Assembly (NCBI GenBank): GCA_002787235.1
Contig: PCWG01000023.1
Location: 3,130-67,129 of the forward strand
Direction: 5' to 3'
Origin: Nitrospinae bacterium CG11_big_fil_rev_8_21_14_0_20_45_15
Lineage (GTDB): Bacteria; Nitrospinota; Nitrospinia; Nitrospinales; VA-1
DNA: 64,000 nt
Shown here piece after piece: positions 2,726-30,792 of this stretch (positions are counted from its first letter, which is position 1; the number at the start of each line of letters is the position of its first letter). Under the pieces are notes generated by a model. That model did not search any database, had not been told where the DNA came from, and saw only the letters and a program-made list of their open reading frames with translations. Position numbers and translations under genes: made by a program.

Positions 2726-2832
2726 GGTTTCTAAATTTCAGGAGCTTGATATGAAAAAAATACTACGCGGGAAATTTTTTGCCTGTGTATTTTGCGTTAT
2801 TTATTCTGCGGTCATGATGGGAGTCGCTCTTT

Positions 2833-3843
2833 TTGGTCACTAAAGTTTTAAAGCAGATTTTGAAGTATAAAAAGGCTCTGATTTATTTTTCCATTGCGGG
2901 TGGCTTTTCTGCAATCCTGATTTCCTATTATGTTTTGAATTATAATTATCATTGGATTCCTGCGCCGCTTGTTGAGTTGGCCCGAGAATCCGAATTGATA
3001 AAAACTCCGCCTGCAAAAACCTGCTCGGAATGTCATGCGAAAATTTTTGAATCGTGGCAGAAGAGTCGGCATTCCAAAGCCTGGGTCAGCGAGTTTTATG
3101 TCGAAGATTCTGAAAATCACTCGAAGGAAAAATGTTTGCCCTGTCACGTGCCGCAGACTGTGAATCCGGGAAAGAAGCCTGATCCCCGGTTGGACAACAG
3201 AGACGATGGCGTGTATTGCGTTTCCTGTCATTTAAAAGACGGTGCAATGAGAGGACCTTATGATCTGTTTTCCCCTTCGCATCCCACTCGGGAAGTAGGG
3301 GAGTTTAGAAAATCTGTTTTTTGTGGATCTTGCCACGAAAAAACCTATAAGGAATGGATGGAAACAGATCGTGAACGGTCCTGCCAGTCTTGTCACATGC
3401 CACGGGTTATGGGACGTTTGACGCAGAAATTTCCCCTCAGTTTATTGCATCGAAAACGTCAGGTTGCCGATCATTCTTTCCCACATGGCGAAATTGATCC
3501 GGACAATATTTTGCTGGAGCTTCAGTTCCAGAATGAAAAGGCGAGCTTATCTCTGACGAATTTAAAAATTCCTCATGCCTTCCCAACCGCAGACAATGGC
3601 GACCCGCGTTTGTATGTTTATATTTCTTTTCTTGATGCAACGGGAGAGGAAGTCACGAGTGAAAAAGAAATCATCGCTCCGCAAAAAGAGACCGCTTTGC
3701 CTTGGCAGAAAGCGATTGTTTATCCATACAGGGTAAATGCAAAAACCGAAAAGGCGCGTGTGAGTATTCAATACAAACCAGCATGGTCGAAAGAAAAAAA
3801 GGAAGTTCTGGTTCGTGAATTTCAGCGCGGTGATAACAGATAG
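2833..3843 (+). CDS. Membrane-anchored pentahaem c-type cytochrome
   Basis: Five CxxCH motifs (CSECH, CLPCH, CVSCH, CGSCH, CQSCH). N-terminal TM anchor ALIYFSIAGGFSAILISYYVL. TTG start preceded by GGGAG; the start is uncertain. Confidence 0.8.
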   Translation: MVTKVLKQILKYKKALIYFSIAGGFSAILISYYVLNYNYHWIPAPLVELARESELIKTPPAKTCSECHAKIFESWQKSRHSKAWVSEFYVEDSENHSKEKCLPCHVPQTVNPGKKPDPRLDNRDDGVYCVSCHLKDGAMRGPYDLFSPSHPTREVGEFRKSVFCGSCHEKTYKEWMETDRERSCQSCHMPRVMGRLTQKFPLSLLHRKRQVADHSFPHGEIDPDNILLELQFQNEKASLSLTNLKIPHAFPTADNGDPRLYVYISFLDATGEEVTSEKEIIAPQKETALPWQKAIVYPYRVNAKTEKARVSIQYKPAWSKEKKEVLVREFQRGDNR

Positions 3844-16257: not shown

Positions 16258-17283
16258 TCAACTGACGCAAACTTTTTTCATATTCTCAAAATCGTCGAGG
16301 ATGGCACCGGCACCCTTTACAATACTGAGGAGAGGGTCTTCCGGTGTGTAAACTTTCAGAGTGGTTTTTTCTTCCAGCAGTTTGTCCAGACCTCGGATCA
16401 GTGCCCCTCCGCCTGTCAGGTAGATTCCGTTAGAGTGAATATCGGCAGAAAGTTCGGGAGGTGTTTTTTCCAGGGCACGCAGGACCGCACTGGTGATTGT
16501 TGCGAGAGACTCACTCATCGCTTCACGAATTTCGGTATCGCCAATGACGATGGATGTGGGAATACCCGTTTTGACGTTGAGTCCTTTTACCTCGGTGGTT
16601 ATTGGTTGATCCAGCTTGTAGGCACTGCCGATTGCGATTTTGACACGCTCAGCTTCAAAAATACCGATGTTGAGGTGGTGTTTCAAGCGCATGTGCCGAA
16701 CGATGGATTCGTCGATTTCATCCCCCGCGAGGCGAATGGATTCGCCGTATGCAATGGCAGAAAGTGAAATGACCGCAACATCCGAAGTGCCTCCTCCAAT
16801 ATCGATGACCATATTGCCCTCAGGCTTATGCACGGGGATACCCACGCCAATAGCCGCGGCCATAGGCTCCTCTACAAGATTCACCCGTTTGGCTCCAGCC
16901 ATGAGAGCCGCATCAATGACGGCCTTTTTTTCCACCTGAGTGATGCAGGTTGGAACGCCGATGACCATATGTGTGCTCACCAGAAACGTACGCGGCAAAG
17001 TCTTCTTGATGAAATACTGGATCATCTTGTTGGTGATGTCAAAGTCGGCGATGACACCATCCTTCATGGGGCGGATGGCCTCCAGTTTGGAATGAGTTCT
17101 GCCGTACATTTTCTTTGCTTCAAGCCCAACGGCCTCAACTTGTCCCTCTGAGTTGATAGCGACAACAGAAGGCTCGTCGAGAACAATGCCTTTATTGTGG
17201 ACGTAGACGAGGGTGTTTGCCGTACCCAGGTCCATGGCCAGATTTGCTGTGAACAAATTTGAAATAGCTTTGAATAGTCCCAT
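16258..17283 (-). CDS. mreB: Actin-like rod-shape protein MreB (non-canonical context)
   Basis: DLGTANTLVY, IRPMKDGVIADF, EEPMAAAIG, DIGGGTSDVAVISL and LTGGGALIRGLDKLL match MreB throughout. No mreC/mreD lie downstream. Confidence 0.92.
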   Translation of the reverse strand: MGLFKAISNLFTANLAMDLGTANTLVYVHNKGIVLDEPSVVAINSEGQVEAVGLEAKKMYGRTHSKLEAIRPMKDGVIADFDITNKMIQYFIKKTLPRTFLVSTHMVIGVPTCITQVEKKAVIDAALMAGAKRVNLVEEPMAAAIGVGIPVHKPEGNMVIDIGGGTSDVAVISLSAIAYGESIRLAGDEIDESIVRHMRLKHHLNIGIFEAERVKIAIGSAYKLDQPITTEVKGLNVKTGIPTSIVIGDTEIREAMSESLATITSAVLRALEKTPPELSADIHSNGIYLTGGGALIRGLDKLLEEKTTLKVYTPEDPLLSIVKGAGAILDDFENMKKVCVS

Positions 17284-18710
17284 CAGGTAGTTTCTGCAAG
17301 AGTTTTTGAGGCTCGTCCATAGGCGAGACCTGTTAGTTCCGTCAGGTTCTTTCCATCGGCAGGAAAGGCTGACAAGCCCATTTCGACTCTCAGATCAAGA
17401 GCGATGGACATTGAGTAAAATCGGTTGTTGTCGAAAACATGCCGGAGTCTTCCTTCTAAAGACAAGACTTCTTCCCGGGTTCTGTCCAACAAGACAAGCA
17501 AAAAAGCATTGTCTGAATATCTGAAAATGAATTTCGGTGAAGGTGCGGAGCGCGATAATAATGACATCAATTGACGAAGCAGTTGATCGGCGCAATCGGC
17601 ACCGTGGTTTTCATAAATGGAGGTCAGTTTGGGCAATCGCATTATTAAAAAGAAAACGGGTTTGTTGTCCAGGAAAAATTCACGCTGGACAGACTCCCGG
17701 TTTTCGACAAGAAACCGATAGTTGGGTGCGCCGGTAACGATATCCACACTGTTTTGGTATTGAGCTTTTTGTCGAGTTTCGGCGCAGTAGAGCGCAATCC
17801 CGGCAGAAGCCCCGATGATTCCCAGACGATCCACATCATCATGACCGATAGAGCGAGGCTCTCGATTCGCACAAAGCAGAACGCCACGCAGTTGTTCTTT
17901 TATCACCAGGGGAATAGCGGCATACGACATGAAGGGCTCATGATCTTCAATTTCGTTGAACAAAGCCAGTTTGCGTTGGGCGGCATTTTCAATGAGGACA
18001 GAAGTTTTGGTTTTGGCACAGGAACCGACGAGTCCTTTCCCCTCTTCGATAAAGAGTTCTCCCAAATCCTGAATGAAACCGCGGTGACCGCGAACCCTTC
18101 CTGGGAAACGACCTTCCTCAAATTCCACGACAGCGATTGCGTCGCATGTAAATATTTCAGCAGGGATTTGAAGCAGTCGTTGAGAAAGATCCTTGAATTG
18201 TGGTGATTCTGCAACGAAACGACTGTAAGTTCCTAGCTCGCGAAAGAAAGGCCAGACTTTTCCTCCACCCCGATTTTCCTCGTCTTCACGATGCATTTGC
18301 ACAGCAATTTGCTCTGTGAAGCCGGTGATGATTTTTAGTAATTTGGGAGAAAAATTATAACTCTGTTTGCTGTCCAACGATAAAACTCCCAGCACTTTGC
18401 CGTTTTCATCAATCACAGGCACCGCGATAAAACTTTTTAAATTTTCTTCAGATTTATAAATTTTTAATTTGGCGAAATCGTCTTTAAAATTTTCAATGAC
18501 AACAGCGTCCCCTGTCAAAGCCGCTTTGCCAATAGGGCTATGTCCCATTGGGATGCTCACGGCTTCATTAAACTTATGGCTCAAGGTCATAAATGTATGA
18601 GGAGTCAAAGCATTTGTTTTTGGATCCAAACGAAACAAGGCAGAGGTGTAGGCATCAGCTACATTGCCTGCAAGATGAACCAAATGGGTGATGATCTCGG
18701 GAGTTTTCAT
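17283..18710 (-). CDS. GAF-GAF signalling protein with a degenerate GGDEF domain
   Basis: Two GAF-like regions (~aa 15-140 and 165-310). C-terminal GGDEF fold (DIVTGAPNYRF...) with the signature replaced by RYSDNAF. The stop (TGA) shares its A with the mreB ATG (TGATG at 17281-17285). Confidence 0.8.
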   Translation of the reverse strand: MKTPEIITHLVHLAGNVADAYTSALFRLDPKTNALTPHTFMTLSHKFNEAVSIPMGHSPIGKAALTGDAVVIENFKDDFAKLKIYKSEENLKSFIAVPVIDENGKVLGVLSLDSKQSYNFSPKLLKIITGFTEQIAVQMHREDEENRGGGKVWPFFRELGTYSRFVAESPQFKDLSQRLLQIPAEIFTCDAIAVVEFEEGRFPGRVRGHRGFIQDLGELFIEEGKGLVGSCAKTKTSVLIENAAQRKLALFNEIEDHEPFMSYAAIPLVIKEQLRGVLLCANREPRSIGHDDVDRLGIIGASAGIALYCAETRQKAQYQNSVDIVTGAPNYRFLVENRESVQREFFLDNKPVFFLIMRLPKLTSIYENHGADCADQLLRQLMSLLSRSAPSPKFIFRYSDNAFLLVLLDRTREEVLSLEGRLRHVFDNNRFYSMSIALDLRVEMGLSAFPADGKNLTELTGLAYGRASKTLAETT

Positions 18711-20111: not shown

Positions 20112-20212
20112 AACGTCATTTTTAACTATTAGTACAAGCTTTTGACGATGTTTTTGAAGTCCTTTAGGTCAAAAGTAAAACCGGTCATTAAGGATTGAAA
20201 CAGGATACAGAA

Positions 20213-22105
20213 ATGAATCGATGGCTTAACTTCTCCAGCTTCAGCGTCCCCTTTCGAAAATGTTTGTTTGCGGTGCCAATTGTAAGTCTGCTTATGGTCA
20301 CTTATTCCAGTCAATCGGTGAGTGCTATGGACGAAAAGCCTGCAGCGATGGCAAAAGAAGAATCTTCAGACGGGAAGATGATGTCTGAAGAGGAAGCGAA
20401 AGAAGGTGCTGATGCTGAAGGTGAAACAGATATTGCCTTGCAGGCGGCGGCAGAGCATGAGGCTTTGTTTGCTGAGAGTAGCTATCCTTCTGCGGCTACT
20501 TGTGGGACCTGTCATCCCAAGCACTATCAGGAGTGGGCGGTGTCTTCTCACTCGTACGCCCAATTGAGCCCTGTTTATTTGTCTCTCAGTAGTGAGATCA
20601 ATGAATTGAGCAGTGGCACGAACGGTGACTTTTGCTTGCGTTGTCACAGTCCTATCGGAGCTAATCTGGGTGAGTCTCCTTTCATGTCGAACCTGGATCG
20701 ACATCCTACCTCACGCGAAGGCATTACTTGTGTCGTGTGTCACCGGTTGAACAAAAATTACAATAAGCGAAGCGGTCGGCTTGCTTTGGTGAAGGGTGAT
20801 CTTCTTCAGCCTGTTTTTGGGCCCAAGGGTAATGAAGAGCTGGCGCGCGTGTTAAAGGATGATAAGTTTCGTGTTGTGACCGAGAAAGGGAAGCCTGGCA
20901 GAAAGATTCATACCGAAATTAAAAAATTCCCGTCCTTGTCAGACCCGATATTTTGTGCAACTTGTCACGACGTTACTTTGTTGAACGGGTTCCGTTTAGA
21001 GGAAGCTTTCAGTGAATATCGGCTTTCCCCGGCGGCAAAAAATGGAGTGTCCTGTCAAGACTGTCATATGGGTAAGGTTCAGGGGGTTGCTTCTGGCTAT
21101 GATGAGGGGCCTGGGGCAGTTGTTGGCGGCAGGGAGACCGCGGTAAGAAAAATTACCAGTCATTTTTTTGCAGGACCCGACTACTCTGTTATTCATCCCG
21201 GTATTTTCCCTCATAATGCAGAAGCGCAGGAAATGGCTACGATGAGAGAATGGCTCCAGTTTGATCATAAGGCGGGTTGGGGAACAGATGAGTTTGAGGA
21301 TAATGTTCCTGAGGGAACCAAGTTTCCTGAAAAATGGAATTCGATTGACGATAGATATGACGCCCGCGAAATTCTCAAGGTTCAGTTTGAGCGATTGGCT
21401 TATGCCCGAAAGATGCGTCTGGAAGTCTTGCGTAACGGTTACTCGCTTGACGAGGTGGTGGTCGAAGAGGTGGGGCAAGATGGTATAGAGTTTAAAGTCC
21501 GGGTTTCCAATAAGACGGATGGTCATAACGTGCCCACAGGGTTTACGGGTGAGCGTTTGGTCTGGTTGCATGTAACGGTTAGAGATGCCAAGGGTGAGCT
21601 TGTGTTTGAGTCGGGTGACCTTGATCCCAATGGCGACGTTCGAGATCATGAATCCTCTTATGTTCATACAGGTACCCTGCCGTTGGATGAGCAATTGTTT
21701 GATATCCGATCCCGGTTTTTAGTTCAAAACCTTCGTGGCGGCGAGAGGGAGAGAATTATTCCCATTCCCTACCCTGTTACAACCATTCCCTTTGTTCGCC
21801 CCTCAATTCAGTCTTTGATTTTGACAGGTGAGCCTGGGACGGAGCGAAACCATCGTAGGGGTATCGAGCCGTTGGGTCATCGTTGGGCGGAATATGAAGT
21901 CGAAGCAGAGGAGTTGGTGGGGCATGAAGGGCCTTATAAATTGCGCGTTGAGTTTAAGGCTTCCATGGCACCGGCTAACCTGGTTGGAGCGATCCAGAAG
22001 CGTGGATTTGATTATGCGATGAGTGCCCGCGAGGTGGTCGATGGCGTGGCTGCGGGGCATGAAGTTTTGTGGGAAAAAGAGCTCGAGCTTGGTAATTCAA
22101 AATAA
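20213..22105 (+). CDS. Secreted pentahaem c-type cytochrome with a large haem-free C-terminal domain
   Basis: Five CxxCH (CGTCH, CLRCH, CVVCH, CATCH, CQDCH) in the first ~300 aa. Signal peptide ...VSLLMVTYSSQSVSA. The C-terminal ~330 aa carry no haem motifs (contains DGHNVPTGFTGER). The start is ATG 20213 or 20195. Confidence 0.85.
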   Translation: MNRWLNFSSFSVPFRKCLFAVPIVSLLMVTYSSQSVSAMDEKPAAMAKEESSDGKMMSEEEAKEGADAEGETDIALQAAAEHEALFAESSYPSAATCGTCHPKHYQEWAVSSHSYAQLSPVYLSLSSEINELSSGTNGDFCLRCHSPIGANLGESPFMSNLDRHPTSREGITCVVCHRLNKNYNKRSGRLALVKGDLLQPVFGPKGNEELARVLKDDKFRVVTEKGKPGRKIHTEIKKFPSLSDPIFCATCHDVTLLNGFRLEEAFSEYRLSPAAKNGVSCQDCHMGKVQGVASGYDEGPGAVVGGRETAVRKITSHFFAGPDYSVIHPGIFPHNAEAQEMATMREWLQFDHKAGWGTDEFEDNVPEGTKFPEKWNSIDDRYDAREILKVQFERLAYARKMRLEVLRNGYSLDEVVVEEVGQDGIEFKVRVSNKTDGHNVPTGFTGERLVWLHVTVRDAKGELVFESGDLDPNGDVRDHESSYVHTGTLPLDEQLFDIRSRFLVQNLRGGERERIIPIPYPVTTIPFVRPSIQSLILTGEPGTERNHRRGIEPLGHRWAEYEVEAEELVGHEGPYKLRVEFKASMAPANLVGAIQKRGFDYAMSAREVVDGVAAGHEVLWEKELELGNSK

Positions 22106-22173
22106 TGCAGATAGGGTTGGCGTTACGTTGCCTCTGTGGAAGATTTTTTACTAATTGTCATTGGAGAAAGTGG

Positions 22174-23613
22174 ATGTCGGTAAGCAAACGTTTTGGAAAC
22201 CGATCTGGATCATTGGGTGGAATTTGTCAGCTGATTTTTGCAGGAATTTTCTTTTTCGCGACCGCTGTACCGGCATTTGCTGAAGGATTGTATCCTCTGG
22301 GTGATGTAGAGGGTATTCCCCGATTTTCCGATGAGCATATTCAGCTACGTCCTCCTTCTGACACGGGGACGCGCCCTCCTTTGATTGTGGAAAAGGGAGA
22401 TCTTTTTTTAGGTGTGGGCAATCTTGATGAAGGTTTCACCACTCCGTGGGGTGCTGTATGGCAACCTCAATTGTGGGTTTTTGGGACCATGCGAAGTTCT
22501 CTGCAAATGTTTGATAACGGTGTTGCGAGCACTGCTTCCGAATGGCGTAACCGGTTTGATCTGTATGCTAACCTGCAATTGACCGGTACTGAGAAAATTC
22601 TTATCGGTGTTCGGCCTCTTGATGTCAATCGACCGGATGGTTTTTCGGGTGTTTCACTCAACGACAGTCGGGATGGCGGAGGGACAGAAAACTTCAACAT
22701 GGCTATCCGAACCTTGTTTTTTGAGGGCGATTTTGGAAGTCTTTTCCCCGGGTTGGATTCGGGTGGATATAAGTGGACGGATTACGGATTTGCGGTGGGT
22801 CGCCAGTTGTTGCAATTCCAGGAAGGTATTTTGTTGAACGATGAGGTGGATGCCTTGGGTCTGGTGCGTAATAACATTCGATTGCCTGGGGTCTCAAACC
22901 TGCGAAGTTCTTTTGTCTGGGGCTGGAATGAGTTGGGCAGAAGTAATGCCCGGGTCAACGATGCGGCGCATATGTTTGGTTTTTTTAACTCAGCCGATTT
23001 GTATAAAAGTTCTGTGAATTTAGACTTGATTGTAGTTGCTGATAGCCAGAAGGATGGGGATGGTGTTTATGTGGGTGCTTCTACCATTCAACGTATTGGG
23101 CATTACAATACGACATTCCGTATCAACAGCTCGATTGCCGAGGGCAAGGATAACGCAAAGGTAGGCACTGGAGTGCTGTTGTCCTCAGAAGTTTCGTGGA
23201 CTCCGAAATCTTCAGATGATATTGTTTATATCAATACCTTTGTTGCTTCCGGGGATTTTACTCAGGCGGGCAGAGAGCCTGTCGTTGGCGGACCTCTCGG
23301 TGCATTGGGAATTATGTTTGCTTCTCCAAGTTTGGGTAATTTTGGATCAGAATTGAGCAGTGCTGCCAGTGATGTCGCGGGTTTCGCGGTTGGTTATGAA
23401 GCTTTCTGGATGAATCACAGAAGAAGTCTGACGATGGAAATTGCGGGACGTAAAGATACAGGTGGTGGCGGGTTTGATGACATGGCTGTCGGTTTTGAGT
23501 ATCGACATCGCTTGGCGCAGAGAATTCAGTGGCAGTTTGATGCTCACTATTCGTTGCAGGAGCGACGTACGGATGGCTTTGGTCTGAGATCTGAAATCGC
23601 ATACCAGTTTTAA
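22174..23613 (+). CDS. Outer-membrane beta-barrel (porin-like) protein
   Basis: Signal peptide MSVSKRFGNRSGSLGGICQLIFAGIFFFATAVPAFA from ATG 22174 (GGAG upstream). Alternating hydrophobic/polar strands, G/S/N-rich loops, and a C-terminal ...RSEIAYQF with terminal Phe typical of BAM substrates. Confidence 0.65.
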   Translation: MSVSKRFGNRSGSLGGICQLIFAGIFFFATAVPAFAEGLYPLGDVEGIPRFSDEHIQLRPPSDTGTRPPLIVEKGDLFLGVGNLDEGFTTPWGAVWQPQLWVFGTMRSSLQMFDNGVASTASEWRNRFDLYANLQLTGTEKILIGVRPLDVNRPDGFSGVSLNDSRDGGGTENFNMAIRTLFFEGDFGSLFPGLDSGGYKWTDYGFAVGRQLLQFQEGILLNDEVDALGLVRNNIRLPGVSNLRSSFVWGWNELGRSNARVNDAAHMFGFFNSADLYKSSVNLDLIVVADSQKDGDGVYVGASTIQRIGHYNTTFRINSSIAEGKDNAKVGTGVLLSSEVSWTPKSSDDIVYINTFVASGDFTQAGREPVVGGPLGALGIMFASPSLGNFGSELSSAASDVAGFAVGYEAFWMNHRRSLTMEIAGRKDTGGGGFDDMAVGFEYRHRLAQRIQWQFDAHYSLQERRTDGFGLRSEIAYQF

Positions 23614-23807
23614 TTTGGACGCATTGTTTTTCAGAATTTCTTGTTTGTCGGTTTGAGGTGTAAGTTTTCAAGAGCGGGAGACAGGCATTTGAAAATCCCT
23701 CTTCTTCTTACTAATAAAGAGAAGAGTGCGTTGTAGTAAAAGTCAAAGGCTCGACGGTGTCGTCGAACTTCATGCGAGGGCGATTTTTTTCATGTAGAGG
23801 GGATATT

Positions 23808-24779
23808 ATGAAACAGAGAAGTTTGTTTTTAAAATTGCTTTTCCTGAATTTTCTATTACTGGCTGGCATTATCGGCTTATCAGGTTGGGTTGCATCTGCC
23901 GATGCGAATCCATTTAACAAGGGAGCCAAGTTATGCGAAGAGTGTCACGAGGCTGAATTTAAAATTTGGAAAAATACCAAACATTTTGAATCTTTTCGAA
24001 CTGTCCATCGCGAGCCGAAGGATAAAAGCAAACCTTCACCCAAAAAGATTCTGGAAGCGGTGGAAGGTGAGAAAAGAATGAAGAGAAACAAAGCATGTTC
24101 TCTTTGTCATTATACCCTTGAGCAAAAAGACGCAGATGACAAGCCCGATGCGGGGTCAGGCACTTCCTGTGAAAGCTGTCATGGTCCATCCTCTGAATGG
24201 TTGGAAATTCACGATAATTACGGTGGAAAAGATGTGAAGCGAGATCAGGAGTCTGCGGATCATAAGGTTAAGAGAATTGCTGACTCCAAGGCAAAGGGGT
24301 TGATCTGGCCTTCCATGAAGTACGAAGTGGCTGAAAATTGCATGGTTTGTCATGGTTTGGCGCATCCTGAATTGACTGCGGATGAGTTGGCCAAGATGTT
24401 GGGTGCTGGTCATCCGATCAATCCAGACTTTGAATTGGTCAAGTATTCTCAAGGTTCCGTGCGGCATCGATACTATCCACCTAACATTAAAGAAAATGCG
24501 GAAATGACTCCAGCAGAGTTGTCGCGCGAGTACGTTGTTGGTCAGGCCGCAGCTTTGGTTTCTGCAACAAATGCCATGTCTAAGTCAGAAGATCCGAAAT
24601 ACAAGGCGGCCCAGGAACAACGAGTCGCTAACGCAAAGGCAGGATTGAGTGGTGTGCCGGAGGCAGCAGGTCTGCTGGCGGCACCAACTCGTGAAAATGC
24701 ACTCAAGTTTGCGGCTGATATCGCGGGTAAGGATCTTTCGGGTGTTGTTAAGTTGCCTGCAAAATCTGATTACAAGTAA
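23808..24779 (+). CDS. Secreted tetrahaem c-type cytochrome
   Basis: Signal peptide MKQRSLFLKLLFLNFLLLAGIIGLSGWVASADA. Four CxxCH (CEECH, CSLCH, CESCH, CMVCH). GAGG lies 8 nt upstream of ATG 23808. Confidence 0.85.
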   Translation: MKQRSLFLKLLFLNFLLLAGIIGLSGWVASADANPFNKGAKLCEECHEAEFKIWKNTKHFESFRTVHREPKDKSKPSPKKILEAVEGEKRMKRNKACSLCHYTLEQKDADDKPDAGSGTSCESCHGPSSEWLEIHDNYGGKDVKRDQESADHKVKRIADSKAKGLIWPSMKYEVAENCMVCHGLAHPELTADELAKMLGAGHPINPDFELVKYSQGSVRHRYYPPNIKENAEMTPAELSREYVVGQAAALVSATNAMSKSEDPKYKAAQEQRVANAKAGLSGVPEAAGLLAAPTRENALKFAADIAGKDLSGVVKLPAKSDYK

Positions 24780-24923
24780 GTCGAATGTTAGCGTGGAAAA
24801 CTTTTTTATGTGCTGCTAAAGGCGAGTGCATTTAAAGGCAATAATGAATTTCTGAAATGCTCGCGTTTGAACTTGTGAATATATATTTACGTTGATATAG
24901 CGTTATTTAATGTATGATTTAAA

Positions 24924-24965
24924 AGAAAGCCCTCCTGATAAGGAGGGCTTTCTTCCTCTTTTTTG
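24924..24965 (+). terminator. Rho-independent terminator
   Basis: Perfect 13-bp stem AGAAAGCCCTCCT / AGGAGGGCTTTCT, GATA loop, T-rich tail. Confidence 0.85.
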
Positions 24966-25103
24966 AAAAGATGTGCGTGCTTCTTGATTTGCGATAAGTG
25001 AGCCCGGATATGAGATTGCATGGAGGAGAAGTTCCGAATCATTTGCAGGATGTCTTTGTTCTTGATGAACTTGGATATACTTTAAGAAAGGCTTGATGTA
25101 AAA

Positions 25104-26786
25104 ATGGCCACACTTTCCCGCCTAAAACGTTGGGATACTCCCTTCAGCCCGGATATGACAGATGAGGAGGTTCAACGTCTTCTCGAAGTTAAAGAAATAG
25201 CCGAAATAGACCGCGATAAATTCCCCGTCAGTACCCCCCTTGAAGGAATTCTTAAAAACGATGCTCGCACGGTGCGTTATGAAGCGGGTGATATTGTTAT
25301 ACGTGAAGGGGACTATGGTAATTCTGCATTTTTAATTCTGAGCGGAGATTTGCGTGTGGTTCTTTCCCCGGGTCTGCCTGATGAGATGCTGGGACGTAAA
25401 AAAATTCGCAAGAAAAGCTTTTTTGAAGCACTGTCTCAGCTCTGGAAAAAAAGTATTATTCCTGAAGTCCGTGATACGGAGCGCTACAAGGATCGTTCTT
25501 TACGAAAAACGAGCGATTCTGGAGTGGCTCAAGTGTTTCTGCAGGATGTTCCCGCCGTGCTGGATTCGAATAAAACGGCAGTTCTGCATCCCGGTGCATT
25601 GTTTGGGGAGCTTGCGGCATTGGGCAGATTGCCTCGAACTTCATCGGTATTTGCTGAAACTGCGGCGACGGTTTTGGAGATTCGTTGGCAGGGATTGCGG
25701 GAGTTGAGGAAATTTGATGAAGGCTGGCGGAGTGCAATTGATAAACGCTACAGAGAAAATGCGTTGAATGCCTATTTGAGTGCCACTGAGCTTTTTTCTC
25801 ATCTGGACGATACTAAGTTGCAAGCCGTGGCCGATAGTGCCCTGTTTGAGACTCATGGAAAGTTTGACTGGCATGTGACCTACAATCAAATGAAGGATAT
25901 GGACAACGCCAGCGTCATTAAGGAAGAACCCGTGATTGCTCGCGAAGGTGACTACCCGGATGGGTTGTTGATGATCCGCGCTGGCTTCGCCCGTGTCTCC
26001 GTGCAAAAGGGGAACGGACGTCAAACTTTGACGTATTTAAAAGCCGGGGATTATTACGGTGACGATGAACTTTACAGAGCCTGGAAGGGTGAAAATAATG
26101 TCACGCTCAAGGTGACTATCACCGCCCTGGGTTACGTGGACGTGTTGCGTGTTCCGTCATTTTCTATAGAAGAACACTTATTTGCTCATTGGGAAGATAA
26201 AAACAAAACCGATTTCGAGCCATCGAAAGCGAATCTTTTTGATCAGACTCTTGCCGATGGTGCTTTGCGCGAGTGGGCGGTTCAGGAGCGATTTATCAAC
26301 GGAACCCAAACGATGATGATCGATTTGGATCGTTGTGTTCGCTGTGATGATTGTGTTCGTGCCTGCTCCGACACGCATCAGGGGAATCCCCGTTTCATTC
26401 GTCATGGAAAAACATTCGATCACTGGATGGTTGCCAACGCATGTATGCATTGTGCCGATCCTGTATGTATGATCGGTTGTCCTACGGGTGCGATCCATCG
26501 CGATTTGTCGGGTGGAATGGTTATCATCAACGACGACACATGCATTGGTTGCGAAACCTGCGCCAACTCTTGTCCCTATTCGAACATCAGGATGGCTGAA
26601 ATCCGGGATGTTGATGGCCGCCCTGTTGTGGACCCGGAAAATCAGAAACCCATTATTAAAGCGACGAAATGTGATTTGTGTGCAGGGCAGAGAACCGGAC
26701 CTGCCTGTGTGTTTGCCTGCCCGCAAGCGGCTGTTAAGCGCGTGGATTTTCGAGAGGCATTTTCAGGTGCCTTTGAGGAGAGTTAA
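25104..26786 (+). CDS. Cytoplasmic cyclic-nucleotide-binding (2 domains) / 4x[4Fe-4S] ferredoxin (DmsB/NrfC/HybA-like) fusion protein
   Basis: cNMP phosphate-binding cassette FGELAALGRLPRTSSVFA at aa 167-184. The second CAP-like domain lacks the cassette. Four cluster motifs: CVRCDDCVRAC, CMHCADPVCMIGCP, CIGCETCANSCP and CDLCAGQRTGPACVFACP. No signal or Tat peptide. Confidence 0.85.
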   Translation: MATLSRLKRWDTPFSPDMTDEEVQRLLEVKEIAEIDRDKFPVSTPLEGILKNDARTVRYEAGDIVIREGDYGNSAFLILSGDLRVVLSPGLPDEMLGRKKIRKKSFFEALSQLWKKSIIPEVRDTERYKDRSLRKTSDSGVAQVFLQDVPAVLDSNKTAVLHPGALFGELAALGRLPRTSSVFAETAATVLEIRWQGLRELRKFDEGWRSAIDKRYRENALNAYLSATELFSHLDDTKLQAVADSALFETHGKFDWHVTYNQMKDMDNASVIKEEPVIAREGDYPDGLLMIRAGFARVSVQKGNGRQTLTYLKAGDYYGDDELYRAWKGENNVTLKVTITALGYVDVLRVPSFSIEEHLFAHWEDKNKTDFEPSKANLFDQTLADGALREWAVQERFINGTQTMMIDLDRCVRCDDCVRACSDTHQGNPRFIRHGKTFDHWMVANACMHCADPVCMIGCPTGAIHRDLSGGMVIINDDTCIGCETCANSCPYSNIRMAEIRDVDGRPVVDPENQKPIIKATKCDLCAGQRTGPACVFACPQAAVKRVDFREAFSGAFEES

Positions 26787-26792
26787 CAGGCT

Positions 26793-27596
26793 ATGATTCG
26801 ACTTTGGATATATATCCTGCTGGCGGTTCTGTTTTTTGTGTTTATTGGATTCTGGACGAGGCAGGCCGAAAAGTTCCTTGCCGAACCAATCCTGATATCA
26901 GGTTGGGCTTTGTTTGCTTCTGTCGCATTTCTTGCGTTGTTTTCCGTACGCAAACGCTTACCCTTTTTATCGTTGGCACCTGCTTCGCGCTGGTTTATGT
27001 TGCACACAATTGGGGGATTTTTAGCATTATCCTTATTTTGGCTTCACATGGGATCATTGTGGCCCAAGGGTTTGGGTGACGAAATCATGGCCGGATTATT
27101 TTATGGAGTCACAGTTTCGGGGATCATCGGTCTGTTTCTTGAAAAGTTGTACCCGCATTATTTGACCCGCAGTGGAGTCGAGTGTATTTACGAACGCATT
27201 CCCAATGAAATTGCAGAGATCCGGAGTATGGCGGAGGATGTCGTGCTGGAATGTGCGCGTGAAACCGGGAGCGATACTTTAGGACAACATTATCTGGAAA
27301 CGTTGCATTGGTTTTTCCAAAGGCCGCGTTTTTTTGTAAATCATGCGTTTATTGGTCAAAGTGCCCAACATTGGGTGCGTCATCAATGCCAGATTCTTGA
27401 ACGCTATCTGGATGAGAAAGAACGCGGGTACCTGAAACAAATTTTTGCTTTGGCGGATTATAAACGAAAAGTCGATTTTCATTATACCGCGCAAAGTATT
27501 TTGAAAGGCTGGCTCCTTATTCATTTGCCTATTTCTATTGGAGTGGTGGCGTTGACATTCTGGCATATTGTCATCGTTCACGTTTATTACATATAA
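26793..27596 (+). CDS. 5-TM membrane protein, candidate di-haem b-type cytochrome
   Basis: 267 aa with five hydrophobic helices. H71/H85 in TM3 and H244/H258 in TM5 are each 14 residues apart. A ~115-aa basic loop lies between TM4 and TM5. The stop overlaps the next ATG. Confidence 0.6.
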   Translation: MIRLWIYILLAVLFFVFIGFWTRQAEKFLAEPILISGWALFASVAFLALFSVRKRLPFLSLAPASRWFMLHTIGGFLALSLFWLHMGSLWPKGLGDEIMAGLFYGVTVSGIIGLFLEKLYPHYLTRSGVECIYERIPNEIAEIRSMAEDVVLECARETGSDTLGQHYLETLHWFFQRPRFFVNHAFIGQSAQHWVRHQCQILERYLDEKERGYLKQIFALADYKRKVDFHYTAQSILKGWLLIHLPISIGVVALTFWHIVIVHVYYI

Positions 27597-29521
27597 TGGC
27601 CACTAATAACCCATTTTCACACGATCAAAGCCGTTACGAGCGACCCAACTTTCCTTATCGTTGTGGTCGTTCGGTATTATGGCAAAAGCCTTGCCATGAT
27701 GGCCCGGAGTTCGATGGTTCTTGTGGGGGTGTTACCGAATGTTCGCCTGCAAAAAAAGGCGATCGTTGGGAATGCCGCCGGACCAAGATGGCAGGGGGGC
27801 CCTGTGAAGACGGTCCCGATTCTTCAGGGAAATGTTCCCGGACGCAACCGCCTTGTTCACCACGTTCCACGCTCAGGGTGATTCGAGGACGTCTTGCTAT
27901 GTTGGCGTTGGGGATCATTATAGCTTTGATTGGAGGATCGCAGGGTGTGGGCCCGAATGAAGTTGCTTTTCTTGATATTTCCGACCCCGGTCCTATTTCA
28001 AAACCGCATTCCAAGTTCACTGAGAATAAAGGTTGTCAAGCATGCCACGCGAATCATGGAAAAGGGGTTGTTGCATGGACTCAAGCTGTATTTTCTGAAA
28101 ATGACATATCAGCTCAATGTGTCGACTGCCACACTTTCGGCGGGCCAAGTTTTGTAGCGCATAATCGAACAGAGAGCAAGGATAAGAGTTTTGACAGTGT
28201 CAAAACGAAATGCACGATGTGTCACCGTGAGCATACGGGCAATGAGATCACTCGAAAGCTGACCAGCGAACAATGCAATAGTTGTCATAAAACACAATTT
28301 GAAAGCTTTGCCCGTGGTCACCCGAAATTTTCTGAGAAATACCCTTATGAGAGTAGAACCTCTATTTTCTTCGATCACGTGTCACATTTGGGCAAGCATT
28401 TTAAAAATTTAAAACATGCCGATAAGGCACCAAAATTGTGCACGGGATGCCATATCGCAACGTTTGCAAAACAAGAAGTGAAGCCCGCAGGCTTTGAAAC
28501 TTGTGAGAAATGTCATGGCAATCAAATCGGTAAAAAAGAGCTGGTTCTCTTGAGGCTTCCCGAATTCACACAAAATCTTATGGACCCGGAATTGGTTCGT
28601 GATGTTTGTGGTGGAAGCGATTCTGCCGAATCCGACGATGATTTCATGAGTGTTTCCACCGATAAGGCCTCGTTGGTTAGTGCTTACCTGTTGAACATAC
28701 CAACGGATGACCCTGAAGTTTACAATCAACCTTTGCAAAAATTTCTGGAAGGCCTTGTTGAAGAATCTTCCGGTCCTCTGGTTGAATTGATTAAGGAAAA
28801 GACAGGTCAAAAATCAATGACGGAGAAAATGCTGTTTGGTTTGAATCCTGAAGCACTCAAGCGTGCTGTTTGCGCCTGGGGGGCCAATCGAGAGTACGAT
28901 CCTCCGGCGGAGGCAATGGGTGGCTGGTATGCAGATTTGCTGGAATTGCGTTACCGACCTTCGGAACATGGCGATGCGGTTGCTAAAAGCTGGATAGAGT
29001 TTGCTATTTCGGCAGTTGAAAATACGCAAGATGAAGAAGAGATGAATCGTGCGTTGGAACTGCGCGAGCAAATCCTGTCGCCGAAAGAAGGTGTGGGCGG
29101 TTGTATCAAATGTCACAGTATTTCCAATGTGTCTATGCCAGGACAAAATCCAAAGCTGGAGGTTGCCTGGAAGTACAAGGATTCTGTGGAAAAACCGCAT
29201 ATGCGTTTTATTCATGACAGTCATATCGAAATGCTGGGGCTTGGCAGTTCCTGCTCCAATTGCCATCACCTTGACAATGAAGCCGATTATGCATCCAGCT
29301 TTAAAACCTTTGATGCCACTCGTTTCGTTGCCAACTTCAAACCGATAGAAAAGGCAAAATGCGTGAATTGCCACAATGAAGGCAAAATCAAGCAGGATTG
29401 CCAAGTCTGCCACAAGTACCACTTTAAGACGGGTTTCAAACAGTCTATGTTGGCACTCAATGAGAAAAATGAGGCTACTTTTAAAGAACGGGAGCCCGTT
29501 ATAGGGGTAAAGGAGGAATAG
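27596..29521 (+). CDS. Membrane-anchored decahaem c-type cytochrome with a cytoplasmic Cys-rich N-terminal module
   Basis: Ten CxxCH (CQACH, CVDCH, CTMCH, CNSCH, CTGCH, CEKCH, then CIKCH, CSNCH, CVNCH, CQVCH). TM helix LAMLALGIIIALIGG is preceded by RVIRGR. Eight Cys lie in aa 23-87. Confidence 0.85.
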   Translation: MATNNPFSHDQSRYERPNFPYRCGRSVLWQKPCHDGPEFDGSCGGVTECSPAKKGDRWECRRTKMAGGPCEDGPDSSGKCSRTQPPCSPRSTLRVIRGRLAMLALGIIIALIGGSQGVGPNEVAFLDISDPGPISKPHSKFTENKGCQACHANHGKGVVAWTQAVFSENDISAQCVDCHTFGGPSFVAHNRTESKDKSFDSVKTKCTMCHREHTGNEITRKLTSEQCNSCHKTQFESFARGHPKFSEKYPYESRTSIFFDHVSHLGKHFKNLKHADKAPKLCTGCHIATFAKQEVKPAGFETCEKCHGNQIGKKELVLLRLPEFTQNLMDPELVRDVCGGSDSAESDDDFMSVSTDKASLVSAYLLNIPTDDPEVYNQPLQKFLEGLVEESSGPLVELIKEKTGQKSMTEKMLFGLNPEALKRAVCAWGANREYDPPAEAMGGWYADLLELRYRPSEHGDAVAKSWIEFAISAVENTQDEEEMNRALELREQILSPKEGVGGCIKCHSISNVSMPGQNPKLEVAWKYKDSVEKPHMRFIHDSHIEMLGLGSSCSNCHHLDNEADYASSFKTFDATRFVANFKPIEKAKCVNCHNEGKIKQDCQVCHKYHFKTGFKQSMLALNEKNEATFKEREPVIGVKEE

Positions 29522-30792
29522 TGCTTAATTTTATTATCAGTCTTATCCCGCTGACTTTTCTGTTGGGGATGATCGCTTACGTATTGACTTTATTGGCCAA
29601 TAATTCACGTTTGATGGCCATAACGCAAGCTACGGTCGATCTGGAAGCGAAATTGTTAAAGGCCAAAATAGATCAGGTGGTCAATCAACAGCGTCTGGAA
29701 AATGAAAAGAAGACTTCACACTGGAGCGGATTCCGTAAATTTCAAGTCATTGACAGGGTAATGGAGACCGATGATATCTGTTCTTTTTACCTGGCTCCCC
29801 ATGACGGCAAGCGGCTTCCACCTTTCGAGCCGGGACAGTACTTGACCTTTCAGGTGCATCCAGAGGGACAGCCAAAACCTGTTACCCGTTGTTATTCTTT
29901 GTCAGACAGCCCCAATCATCCGGATAGATACCGTGTCTCTATTAAAAAAGTACCCCCGCCACCCAATGAACCTATGGTACCCCCGGGTCTGGTTTCGAAC
30001 TATTTTCACAACTCCCTCAAAGTTGACGACATCATTGATGTGAAGGCTCCGAGTGGTCATTTTCATATTGACCAGACCAAGCAAACGCCGGTTGTTTTAT
30101 TAGGAAGCGGGGTTGGCATCACGCCGGTACTGAGTATTTTGAACAGCATTGCTGAAAGTGACTCGAAACGTGAGACCTGGTTTTTTCTCGGCGTCAAAAA
30201 TCGCAGTGAACATATGATGAAGGAGCATTTGGAGGCTGTTGCCAAACAACACGAAAATATTGAGGTTAAAATATGTTACAGCCGACCCGAAGCGAGCGAT
30301 GTGGAGGGGCAGGATTATCATTATGGAGAACGCGTCTCTGTTGATTTGTTGAAACGTGTTCTTCCCTCCAATAATTATGATTATTATCTTTGCGGTCCGC
30401 CGCCCATGATCAAGTCTTTGCGAACCGATCTGGAGGCGTGGGGTGTTCCAAAAGCTAAAGTGCATTTTGAAGCTTTTGGACCAGCGACTGTCAAAAAAAA
30501 TACGGACGAAAAGCCAGCCACTACAGAGAAAACAAGTACGATCCAAGTGACTTTTGCACGAACTTCAAAGACGATGACCTGGAATTCAGCGGTCAGCTCA
30601 ATCCTGGATTTTGCCGAAGCCAATGGCATCCCCATGGAGTCAGGCTGTAGAGCCGGAAATTGCGGGACTTGTCTGGTGGCTATCAAATCGGGTGAAATTT
30701 CCTATGTGGGTGAGCCCGGTTCTACTCCAGAAGCGGGTTCCTGTCTCGCATGTATCTCAGTTCCAAAGAGTGATTTGATCGTTGATGCTTAA
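29521..30792 (+). CDS. Membrane-anchored ferredoxin-NAD(P)H reductase-family flavoprotein with a C-terminal plant-type 2Fe-2S domain
   Basis: GTG start overlapping the preceding TAG, with AAGGAGG upstream. N-terminal TM (IISLIPLTFLLGMIAYVLTLL). FAD motif RCYSLS. NAD(P) motif LLGSGVGITP. C-terminal CRAGNCGTC...CLAC. Confidence 0.85.
   Translation: MLNFIISLIPLTFLLGMIAYVLTLLANNSRLMAITQATVDLEAKLLKAKIDQVVNQQRLENEKKTSHWSGFRKFQVIDRVMETDDICSFYLAPHDGKRLPPFEPGQYLTFQVHPEGQPKPVTRCYSLSDSPNHPDRYRVSIKKVPPPPNEPMVPPGLVSNYFHNSLKVDDIIDVKAPSGHFHIDQTKQTPVVLLGSGVGITPVLSILNSIAESDSKRETWFFLGVKNRSEHMMKEHLEAVAKQHENIEVKICYSRPEASDVEGQDYHYGERVSVDLLKRVLPSNNYDYYLCGPPPMIKSLRTDLEAWGVPKAKVHFEAFGPATVKKNTDEKPATTEKTSTIQVTFARTSKTMTWNSAVSSILDFAEANGIPMESGCRAGNCGTCLVAIKSGEISYVGEPGSTPEAGSCLACISVPKSDLIVDA

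Follow-up and report, generated by a model that had tools for sequence, protein, structure and literature searches.

A conserved, internally duplicated eight-cysteine module at the predicted cytoplasmic end of the decahaem cytochrome PtdG

The ptd gene cluster in the window

The sequence analysed here (the window) is a stretch of 64,000 nucleotides of contig PCWG01000023.1 from Nitrospinae bacterium CG11_big_fil_rev_8_21_14_0_20_45_15 (GCA_002787235.1). Seven genes on its + strand, all within 20195-30792 and in the order A-B-D-E-F-G-C (Table 1), were matched gene by gene through published descriptions and on that basis are assigned to the ptdABCDEFG operon, which was named in a 2024 preprint whose authors call its function "completely unknown" (bioRxiv 10.1101/2023.11.21.568154). 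According to the same preprint, PtdA is pentahaem, PtdB a porin, PtdD tetrahaem and PtdG decahaem, PtdE is a cNMP/4Fe-4S protein, PtdF is 'ferric reductase-like' and PtdC is an FAD/NAD(P) oxidoreductase; the cluster is often found among marine nitrite oxidisers and Alphaproteobacteria, and its genes are transcribed in an oxygen-deficient zone. The window resembles the preprint operon in that the decahaem protein stands beside PtdE, PtdF, PtdC, PtdA, PtdB and PtdD, and differs from it in gene order. Moreover, PtdG is described there as simply periplasmic, its N-terminal TM anchor and cytoplasmic Cys-rich domain are unmentioned, and the word 'cysteine' is absent from the text.

The E-F-G-C core is conserved among Nitrospinaceae-like, Alphaproteobacteria-like, Bradyrhizobium and Nisaea loci, and in some loci it is also found without ptdA and ptdB. 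The canonical A-G order, with the N-terminal module on PtdG, is present in Bradyrhizobium diazoefficiens and Nisaea denitrificans, and the Alphaproteobacteria homologues of PtdG share the same gene context. In every locus examined ptdF adjoins the cytochrome gene, and in the window the start of ptdC overlaps the stop of ptdG. PtdC is similar to the reductase portion of NO-inducible flavohaemoprotein (NF009805, E 7.7e-79). Besides the Nitrospinaceae locus L001, the only genome-contig locus was L002 (Anaerolineales), which was rejected as an unrelated NrfH-plus-multihaem pair.

Table 1. Genes of the ptd cluster and features of PtdG, with positions in the window
Feature	Positions	Strand	Description	Basis or remark
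ptdA-like	20195..22105	+	secreted pentahaem cytochrome	
ptdB-like	22105..23613	+	putative outer-membrane beta-barrel	signal peptide, C-terminus ...EIAYQF
ptdD-like	23757..24779	+	tetrahaem cytochrome	
ptdE-like	25104..26786	+	cytoplasmic; cNMP-binding-like domains, 16 Cys in four ferredoxin-type motifs	
ptdF-like	26793..27596	+	267 aa, five-helix membrane protein; putative di-haem b	invariant H71/H85, H244/H258
ptdG-like	27596..29521	+	641 aa: N-terminal 8-Cys module, one TM helix, decahaem c-type cytochrome	ORF list
Module (predicted cytoplasmic), Tyr14 to Pro89	27635..27862	+		conserved in homologue alignments
Repeat unit 1, Cys23 to Pro51	27662..27748	+	C-x9-C-x9-C-x5-C-x-P	
Repeat unit 2, Cys60 to Pro89	27773..27862	+	C-x9-C-x9-C-x6-C-x-P	
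Basic linker R90-R99 (RSTLRVIRGR)	27863..27892	+	cytoplasmic flank of TM helix	read directly, with family charge statistics
Single TM helix (signal anchor), aa 100-118	27893..27949	+		AlphaFold2 and hydropathy
Periplasmic haem block 1, aa 147-307	28034..28516	+	six CxxCH	weak NrfH/Paired_CXXCH similarity
Haem-free insert, aa 308-502 (195 aa)	28517..29101	+		length varies among relatives
Periplasmic haem block 2, aa 503-606	29102..29413	+	four CxxCH	cytochrome c7 / MtrC domain II-IV-like matches
ptdC-like	29521..30792	+	N-terminal TM helix, FAD/NAD(P)H reductase domain, C-terminal plant-type [2Fe-2S] motif	

An eight-cysteine module precedes the membrane anchor of PtdG

Ten CxxCH motifs were counted in PtdG (aa 147, 175, 206, 227, 282 and 303, then 503, 553, 589 and 602), as the first-pass annotation had proposed with its 6 + 4 arrangement; the haem-free insert between the two blocks, which was put there at ~170 aa, spans 195 aa. 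Multihaem Pfam matches begin at aa 138 and none occurs earlier. The first haem lies ~27 residues beyond the anchor helix, which AlphaFold2 models as a helix at 93-117 (pLDDT 85-97) and which is the hydropathy maximum in 219 members of the family, and the helix is itself preceded by a 95-aa extension. The interval 27662-27856, singled out in the first-pass annotation as a duplicated 4-Cys module, has the codons of Cys23 and Cys87 as its exact ends. The eight cysteines stand at 23, 33, 43, 49, 60, 70, 80 and 87 with the reported spacing (9-9-5, then 10, then 9-9-6), and the half motifs PCHDGPEFDGSC and PCEDGPDSSGKC are both found in the N-terminus.

A total of 261 homologues of the PtdG-like protein were found. 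Among the 120 best homologues, whose identity goes down to 41%, 118 keep the eight cysteines at the same spacing, and the count rises to 120 after correction of two miscalled starts. P0073 and P0081 seemingly lack the module, and in both a full module is encoded in frame upstream, which marks them as gene-calling errors; likewise, P0283 and P0350, in which the module seems internal, have miscalled starts. Gene callers thus sometimes clip the PtdG module, with consequences for annotation. More distant representatives keep the eight cysteines and their spacing with at most small changes in loop length. The family consensus of the module is YERP..pY.CGR...W..PC..GP..dG.CGG...C.P......rW.CrR....GG.C..GP.p.G.C....pPC.P; invariant in the alignments are Y14, R16, C23, G24, R25, W29, C33, G36, P37, G41, C43, G44, G45 and C49 in the first half, and C60, G67, G68, C70, G73, P74, G78, C80, C87 and P89 in the second. 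A profile of the module alone matched 586 representatives (protein clusters) at E<=1e-3 among 1.84 billion proteins. In the best 150 of these 586 matches the module always stands at the N-terminus, a TM helix comes next (about aa 95-125), the full-length proteins mostly carry ten CxxCH after that helix, and no other architecture with the full module occurs. Taken with the alignments, this distribution points to the eight cysteines as the invariant core of a new N-terminal, predicted cytoplasmic domain of ~75 residues that defines the PtdG family.

The two halves reduce to a common unit, C-x-R-x6-P-C-x2-GP-x3-G-x-C-x5/6-C-x-P. A six-frame translation of the whole window contains this pattern in only two places, both of them in the module; because it is confined to this place and is conserved in homologues, it is not due to chance. 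Alignment of the two half-profiles with hhalign gave a probability of 95.9% (E 6e-9), in agreement with the internal duplication suggested earlier: the two halves are homologous, and the module arose through tandem duplication of the 4-Cys unit.

Searches for known families and folds

The module, which the first-pass annotation did not recognise, is without a match to any Pfam, NCBIfam or PDB entry. Searches of Pfam and NCBIfam with the whole of PtdG and with aa 1-99 at E<=10 returned nothing credible for it, the sole match of aa 1-99 being DHODB_Fe-S_bind (E 0.85, over 11 residues). When PDB sequences were searched with profiles, neither the whole module nor the half unit rose above noise (Leu3 Zn2Cys6, E 0.42; SRCR, E 0.45; a phage lipoprotein, E 0.2). 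AlphaFold2, run on aa 1-138 with a 34-sequence alignment, yielded no confident fold for the module (pLDDT 41-57), and a Foldseek comparison of this model with the PDB gave 0 matches; low confidence in an apo model is expected if the fold depends on a cofactor or partner.

The spacing 9-9-5 is that of no canonical Fe-S motif, and three familiar Cys-rich types were rejected because their motifs do not fit. For a ferredoxin-type [4Fe-4S] domain (Fer4 clan), CxxCxxCxxxC(P) is absent and no Fer4 match was obtained in aa 1-95 at E<=10. A zinc ribbon, zinc finger or rubredoxin-like domain would have paired CxxC (or CxxH) knuckles, whereas no invariant CxxC occurs here, the cysteines being spaced by 9, 9, 5/6 and 10. 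Twin Cx9C (CHCH) proteins share the Cx9C spacings, yet the loops here are Gly/Pro-rich, AlphaFold2 places no helices in aa 1-92, and the module is predicted to be cytoplasmic and not in an oxidising compartment.

Membrane topology and translation of the module

Haem c is attached in the periplasm (Ccm/Sec pathway), so the C-terminal part of PtdG is outside and the N-tail inside. The charges agree with the cytoplasmic location that had been claimed for the module: the basic RVIRGR (aa 94-99) is present before the single hydrophobic helix (aa 100-118), and across 219 family members the flanks of this signal anchor obey the positive-inside rule, with 4.5 K/R and 0.1 D/E on the N flank, 0.84 K/R and 1.56 D/E on the C flank, and a mean net charge of the N-tail of +6.9. 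By the charge rule the module is predicted to lie in the cytoplasm, and because it is ~12 residues from the core of the TM helix, it would sit on the cytoplasmic face of the membrane. As to the reading frame, the start was found upstream of the module. The ATG of ptdG overlaps the stop codon of ptdF (TAATG), the same arrangement is found in the 84%-identical Nitrospinaceae locus L001, and the ptdG start abuts or overlaps the ptdF stop in every locus examined; the TAATG overlap indicates translational coupling of ptdF and ptdG. Between the window and L001 there are 6 synonymous and 0 non-synonymous differences in codons 1-12, and 34 synonymous and 10 non-synonymous differences in codons 13-92. 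These codon differences mark the module as translated and subject to purifying selection.

Two readings would deprive the module of a cytoplasmic role. That it is an annotation artefact, with the true start downstream (Met65 or Met102) and the Cys-rich stretch untranslated, has practically no chance of being right: although no obvious Shine-Dalgarno sequence precedes the ptdG ATG and two database homologues were called without the module, both short calls carry the full module in frame upstream, the ptdG start lies at the ptdF stop in every locus examined, the amino-acid pattern is kept down to about 41% overall identity, and the ratios 34:10 and 6:0 are those of coding sequence under constraint. 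An untranslated leader is ruled out by this codon-level conservation, which effectively refutes the artefact reading as a whole. It is also very improbable that the module is an extracytoplasmic, disulfide-rich mini-domain, or a long leader removed after export as in the decahaem PioA, whose long N-terminal extension is reportedly cleaved. An even number of cysteines, fixed spacing and Gly/Pro-rich loops do typify disulfide-rich extracellular modules too, and the weak, non-significant matches of the half-unit profile are SRCR domains. However, an N-terminal signal peptide is absent, the first 95 residues are hydrophilic and hold 17 K/R, the positive charge is on the N flank of the sole hydrophobic helix, and the haem domain must be periplasmic, which leaves the N-tail in the cytoplasm. 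Moreover, a discarded leader would not retain 24 invariant residues over hundreds of clusters, and if the chain were cut beyond the helix, the module would still be anchored in the membrane on the cytoplasmic side.

PtdF as a candidate membrane wire

The first-pass annotation saw in PtdG a potential single-chain transmembrane redox link. The duplicated module does stand N-terminal to the single anchor helix, but this helix has no conserved cofactor ligand, and hence the chain alone cannot move electrons across the bilayer. The neighbouring PtdF is the likelier wire, judging from its histidines: four are invariant in 107 sequences and form H-x13-H twice (H71/H85 and H244/H258), in helices 3 and 5 (64-86 and 208-266). 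These two pairs suggest two b haems that would carry electrons across the membrane, an assignment made from the His spacing only. PtdF has weak DUF4405, Ferric_reduct and PepSY_TM matches. PF01794 matched 2 of the 62 family members searched (E>=1.6), and DUF4405 matched 23 of the 62 below threshold (best E 0.025); a PDB profile search with PtdF gave no significant support for membership of the ferric-reductase domain, and Foldseek of PtdF against the PDB gave nothing significant (best E 0.2; STEAP1 at E 3.2, TM 0.19). PtdF was thus rejected as a bona fide ferric-reductase-domain protein, Pfam, PDB profile and Foldseek being unsupportive, and the His pattern and the sub-threshold DUF4405 matches remain.

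Comparison with known redox systems

The two H-x13-H pairs of PtdF have the spacing by which two stacked b haems are bound in the NOX/STEAP/MsrQ/YedZ and DUF4405 superfamily, and, since an NAD(P)H/FAD reductase is encoded beside PtdF, the arrangement is reminiscent of a NOX whose parts are separate subunits; PtdF differs in having five predicted TM helices and a cytoplasmic helical domain of ~110 aa. For PtdG, a resemblance is found to NapC/NirT/NrfH/CymA, in which an N-terminal signal-anchor helix is also followed by closely spaced CxxCH, and the first PtdG haems weakly match TIGR03153 NrfH (E 1.4e-8, aa 140-242), although at 34.9 bits this is far under the cutoff of 134.2, and PF03264 gives no match to PtdG. 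Proteins of the NapC/NirT/NrfH/CymA group are not known to have more than a few residues ahead of the helix, or any domain in the cytoplasm. They carry four or five haems in contrast to the ten of PtdG, and PtdG is partnered by a flavoprotein and a membrane protein rich in His instead of a reductase in the periplasm.

NosR unites in one polypeptide a flavin cofactor domain in the periplasm, TM helices and, C-terminally, a cytoplasmic domain that carries two [4Fe-4S] motifs. Within the NosR/NirI (and NapH) group it is the best precedent for one chain with redox sites on both sides of the membrane, but its motifs are ferredoxin-type CxxCxxCxxxCP whereas those of PtdG are non-canonical, and it combines FMN outside with several TM helices where PtdG has covalent haem c and one TM helix; sequence similarity of PtdG to NosR/NirI/NapH was not detected in the Pfam and NCBIfam searches. 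Hmc, Tmc and DsrMKJOP of sulfate reducers likewise form a conduit of periplasmic multihaem c, membrane haem b and cytoplasmic Fe-S, and weak HmcA and DsrO matches occur in PtdG and PtdE. In contrast to these complexes, ptd has neither an HdrD/CCG protein nor an NrfD-type subunit and has an NAD(P)H flavoprotein, and the cytoplasmic Cys domain of those complexes is not fused to the cytochrome. RnfB/RseC, finally, place a small cytoplasmic Cys cluster on an N-terminal membrane tether at the membrane surface of an electron-transfer complex, but the Cys spacing is another one (the RseC motif is CX5CX2CX5C; PMC11729352), the motif is unduplicated, there is no periplasmic cytochrome domain, and no homology to PtdG is detectable.

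A possible role of the module

The module contains 10 Gly, 8 Pro, 8 Cys and just 7 large hydrophobic residues in 67. With Gly, Pro and Cys making up 39% of it and a hydrophobic core almost absent, it most likely folds around a metal, which it probably binds. We tentatively favour a relay at the membrane surface, made of Fe-S or Fe(Cys)4 centres, that connects PtdC/PtdE with PtdF, a role that is quite possible if still short of probable; here we infer from sequence the binding of metal, its identity, redox activity, how the subunits meet and which way the electrons flow. The module would bind a pair of Fe-S clusters, or of Fe(Cys)4 centres, and would pass electrons between the inner b haem of PtdF and the redox subunits in the cytoplasm, namely PtdC with NAD(P)H, FAD and [2Fe-2S], PtdE with its four [4Fe-4S]-type motifs, or both. 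The membrane would be crossed via the two bis-His b haems of PtdF and not along the PtdG helix. In the periplasm the ten c haems of PtdG would take the electrons up again, and in loci that have ptdD, ptdA and ptdB they would pass on to the tetrahaem protein and the pentahaem/porin pair.

In the main rival reading the module is redox-inactive: two Zn(Cys)4 sites would give it a purely structural function, as a rigid platform in the cytoplasm that recruits PtdE and/or PtdC to the PtdF-PtdG membrane core, positions them there, or aids assembly of the complex. Such sites could explain the Cys conservation equally well: the eight invariant cysteines fall into two equivalent sets of four, which fits a pair of tetrahedral sites, and the invariant surface-type residues Y14, R16, R25, W29 and R62 together with the GP/GG turns fit a protein-protein interface. 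PtdC and PtdE, moreover, already supply a complete cytoplasmic cluster chain, and direct docking of the PtdC [2Fe-2S] or the PtdE clusters on PtdF could make a further relay unnecessary. The sole PDB match of the whole module, far from significant, is the Zn2Cys6 domain of Leu3, but this match is noise, and the invariant cysteines form no CxxC or CxC knuckle, one or other of which is contained, to our knowledge, in nearly all structural Zn(Cys)4 sites. We regard the zinc reading as somewhat unlikely. A sensory or regulatory site that gates electron flow or assembly and does not itself carry the main current, in the form of an Fe-S cluster labile to O2, NO or redox change or of a thiol switch, is improbable. 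The cNMP-binding (CRP/FNR-type effector) domains of PtdE and the flavohaemoprotein likeness of PtdC hint at a regulated complex or at a link with NO/O2 chemistry, and transcription of ptd genes in an oxygen-deficient zone would suit such a site (bioRxiv 10.1101/2023.11.21.568154), but the rigid, invariant membrane tether and the presence of the module in every member are better suited to a fixed structural or electron-transfer part.

If the Fe-S/Fe(Cys)4 relay is taken as the working reading, PtdG with two cytoplasmic centres and ten periplasmic c haems might form, together with a di-haem b PtdF and the NAD(P)H flavoprotein PtdC, an unrecognised NOX-like, multi-subunit transmembrane electron exporter that is widespread in aerobic and microaerobic bacteria of sea and soil (Nitrospinaceae, marine Alphaproteobacteria, Bradyrhizobium, Nisaea); this wider proposal is conceivable but doubtful. 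An Fe-S-binding module would represent a new cluster-binding fold and make PtdG a rare single chain with cofactors on both sides of the membrane. PtdG would in any case be not merely a periplasmic cytochrome but an inner-membrane-anchored protein with an invariant domain of metal-binding type that faces the cytoplasm, next to a putative two-haem membrane protein and an NAD(P)H flavoprotein, and the ptd cluster becomes a concrete, testable candidate for an inside-to-outside or outside-to-inside electron conduit. Because the module is present in the cultured Bradyrhizobium diazoefficiens and Nisaea denitrificans, experiments are feasible.

The cysteine module of PtdG

The decahaem protein PtdG carries eight cysteines ahead of its single transmembrane helix, at positions 23, 33, 43, 49, 60, 70, 80 and 87, and the interval picked out by the first-pass annotation runs exactly from the Cys23 codon through the Cys87 codon of the 641-aa ORF. 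The spacing is as described there, 9-9-5, then 10, then 9-9-6; both half motifs were found (PCHDGPEFDGSC and PCEDGPDSSGKC), and the basic stretch RVIRGR occupies aa 94–99, ahead of a hydrophobic helix at aa 100–118. The ten haem motifs fall into groups of six and four (CxxCH at aa 147, 175, 206, 227, 282, 303 and 503, 553, 589, 602), but the haem-free gap, put at ~170 aa, measured 195 residues (aa 308–502, between haems 6 and 7). Across all six reading frames of the window, the 4-Cys unit pattern has two sites only, both in this module, and the eight-cysteine observation is confirmed, far beyond chance. Relatives of PtdG reach 770–1100 aa with the haem number still ten, and longer ones (the homologues P0089 and P0091 and that of locus L008) have precomputed Pfam matches to DUF4384 and TPR. 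Sequence comparison points to a variable non-haem periplasmic domain, for which the haem-free insert is the candidate.

The ptdG ATG shares bases with the stop codon of the gene before it (TAATG), and its own stop overlaps the GTG start of the next gene downstream. In each other locus examined, ptdG begins next to the stop codon of the membrane-protein gene upstream or overlaps it. It had been asked whether the true start lies downstream of the module. Compared with its counterpart in Nitrospinaceae bacterium OFTM96 (L001), which is 84% identical, codons 1–12 hold 6 synonymous and 0 non-synonymous differences and codons 13–92 hold 34 and 10, a clear sign of purifying selection on the module protein sequence. 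This codon evidence refutes a miscalled start, so that an untranslated module has practically no chance of being correct; judged from its codons, the module is translated. Automated annotation of this N-terminus is unreliable across the family. The homologues P0073 and P0081 are gene-calling errors, since in-frame DNA 5′ of the called starts encodes the full module, from the upstream gene's stop; at L006 2728–3000 and L007 about 2700–3000 the public calls are ~95 codons late and lose all eight cysteines. P0283 and P0350 were called too early, from GC-rich junk, and their apparently internal modules are upstream-extended miscalls.

Conservation, duplication and family comparison

A whole-protein search gave 261 homologues, 120 of them listed, down to 41% identity. 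Cysteine conservation was borne out in 118 of the 120, which keep all eight with the same spacing, the other two being the miscalled P0073 and P0081. Also invariant are Y14, R16, G24, R25, W29, G36, P37, G41, G44, G45, G67, G68, G73, P74, G78 and P89. A module-only profile (81 columns) searched against 1.84 billion representative proteins matched 586 at E ≤ 1e-3 and 415 at E ≤ 1e-10. Among the best 150 of the 586, the module is at the extreme N-terminus in all, followed by a hydrophobic helix at ~aa 95–125 and, in most full-length proteins, by ten CxxCH; no other domain architecture was seen among these 150. Distant members vary only in some loop lengths (first loop 8 or 9 residues, inter-half linker 10 to 24) and often have a ninth cysteine beside Cys7. 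In many lineages it stands directly after Cys7 (Cys80) or two residues on (CC or CxC), and could be an alternative ligand.

The proposed internal duplication holds: the half profiles align in register over 27 columns (hhalign probability 95.9%, E 6e-9), with the joint consensus aromatic-x-C-(G/R)-R-x6-P-C-x2-G-P-x3-G-x-C-x5/6-C-x-P. As the first-pass annotation had found, the module is hard to recognise. Pfam and NCBIfam gave no match to aa 1–137; with aa 1–99 alone at E ≤ 10, NCBIfam again gave none and Pfam only DHODB_Fe-S_bind (11 residues, E 0.85). Profile searches of all PDB sequences with the module returned noise only, and Foldseek of its low-confidence model found no match. Ferredoxin, zinc-knuckle and helical twin-Cx9C identities were considered, and the cysteine spacing fits none of them. 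Within the libraries searched, the module is therefore a domain family with no earlier description.

Topology and fold

PtdG has no N-terminal signal peptide. Across 219 family members, the 15 residues on the N-side of the helix average 4.5 K/R and 0.1 D/E, those on the C-side 0.84 K/R and 1.56 D/E, and the net charge of the N-tail averages +6.9. Covalent haem attachment at CxxCH happens in the periplasm, and thus the C-terminal part lies outside and the module is cytoplasmic, as had been claimed. Disulfides are unstable in the cytoplasm. Of 67 module residues, 10 are Gly, 8 Pro and 8 Cys, and large hydrophobic ones number only 7, so that a hydrophobic core is missing; AlphaFold2 pLDDT is 41–57 here and 85–97 in the adjoining helix. 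Together, topology, composition and pLDDT indicate a small domain whose folding probably depends on metal or on a partner.

The ptd gene cluster

The ptdG gene sits in a same-strand cluster (20195–30792, +), which is the ptdABCDEFG operon of a preprint (bioRxiv 10.1101/2023.11.21.568154), with the same seven products; PtdA, PtdB and PtdD correspond to its porin-cytochrome part.

Features of the ptd region and its surroundings (window positions)
Feature	Position	Strand
mreB	16258–17283	-
GAF-GAF-GGDEF diguanylate cyclase gene	17283–18710	-
PtdA, secreted pentahaem cytochrome	20195–22105	+
PtdB, 502 aa, signal peptide, outer-membrane-barrel-type C-terminus ...EIAYQF, no Pfam match	22105–23613	+
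PtdD, tetrahaem cytochrome	23757–24779	+
PtdE, presumably cytoplasmic, cNMP-binding-like domains, 16 Cys in four ferredoxin motifs	25104–26786	+
PtdF, 267-aa membrane protein	26793–27596	+
PtdG, decahaem	27596–29521	+
PtdG Cys23–Cys87	27662–27856	+
Ninth-Cys position near Cys80	about 27836–27841	
PtdG haem-free insert	28517–29101	+
PtdC, TM-anchored FAD/NAD(P)H reductase, C-terminal plant-type [2Fe-2S] motif	29521–30792	+

That preprint names the products, places decahaem PtdG in the periplasm and says of the function that it "remains completely unknown"; the word "cysteine" is absent from it, and in the literature searched the name ptd occurs only there. The operon name is already published, but the preprint describes neither the eight-cysteine domain nor an anchored PtdG with parts on both sides of the membrane. 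Multihaem gene clusters of unclear role have been noted in Nitrospinaceae MAGs, OFTM96 included (PMC11995701). Upstream of the cluster, the opposite strand carries mreB and the diguanylate cyclase gene.

Gene order is A-B-D-E-F-G-C in the window, D-E-F-G-A-B-C in L003, D-E-F-G-C in L004 and E-F-G-C only in L005, while cultured Bradyrhizobium diazoefficiens (L008) and Nisaea denitrificans (L009) have the canonical A-B-C-D-E-F-G with the module on PtdG. Thus E-F-G-C, present in all loci examined, is the invariant core, A, B and D vary, and the porin-cytochrome pair is optional. The ferredoxin-type motifs of PtdE (aa 411–421, 447–459, 480–490, 523–539) suggest up to four [4Fe-4S] clusters of DmsB/NrfC type, against two stated in the preprint. 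PtdE lacks a signal or Tat motif and is presumably cytoplasmic.

PtdF as candidate for the membrane step

No cofactor ligand is conserved in PtdG's one helix. By itself, therefore, the protein cannot carry electrons across the bilayer, and the "single-chain transmembrane redox link" is not borne out as stated. A better candidate is the upstream, translationally coupled PtdF, which has four invariant histidines in 107 aligned homologues, H71/H85 and H244/H258, each pair H-x13-H. Its AlphaFold2 model (pLDDT 92.4) has five TM helices, with a ~110-aa helical domain between helices 4 and 5, and places the pairs in helix 3 (64–86) and the membrane part of the long last helix (208–266). Applied to the invariant R53 and K54, the positive-inside rule would make the ~110-aa domain and H71/H244 cytoplasmic and H85/H258 periplasmic, an arrangement that two stacked b haems would have. 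PtdF is thus likely to bind two b haems, in a protein of unusual architecture. Membership of the ferric-reductase-domain superfamily is not established, although the preprint's term "ferric reductase-like" points the same way. PtdF itself has no Pfam or NCBIfam match, its homologues have sub-threshold Pfam matches only (DUF4405 in 23 of 62, best E 0.025; Ferric_reduct in 2 of 62), and Foldseek gave no significant match in the PDB.

A proposed relay and its alternatives

The redox-link reading is partly supported: a cytoplasmic, duplicated, invariant module that the libraries do not recognise has stood, and the single-chain link should give way to a multi-subunit conduit with PtdF as the candidate for the membrane step. 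The module would be a predicted cofactor site, and belong with the Cys-cluster domains that respiratory complexes tether to the cytoplasmic side of the membrane. The main rival, in which two Zn(Cys)4 sites are purely structural and dock the cytoplasmic subunits, is somewhat less likely than the relay proposed below; that the module has no CxxC knuckle counts slightly against this rival. It is improbable that the module is a sensory cluster or thiol switch, and an extracytoplasmic module or cleaved leader, contradicted by the flank charge statistics and by the strong conservation, is more improbable still.

We tentatively propose an electron relay, to which as a whole we give somewhat less than an even chance. 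The eight-cysteine domain lies ~12 residues from the helix core on a tether of nearly constant length, and would lie against the cytoplasmic face of the membrane, next to PtdF, binding two centres of Fe-S or Fe(Cys)4 type. Through these centres, electrons would be exchanged between the inner b haem on one side and, on the other, PtdC (NAD(P)H, FAD, [2Fe-2S]), PtdE (four [4Fe-4S]-type motifs) or both. PtdF would take them over the bilayer, and they would return to PtdG at its c haems, with PtdD and PtdA/B, where present, as the next acceptors.
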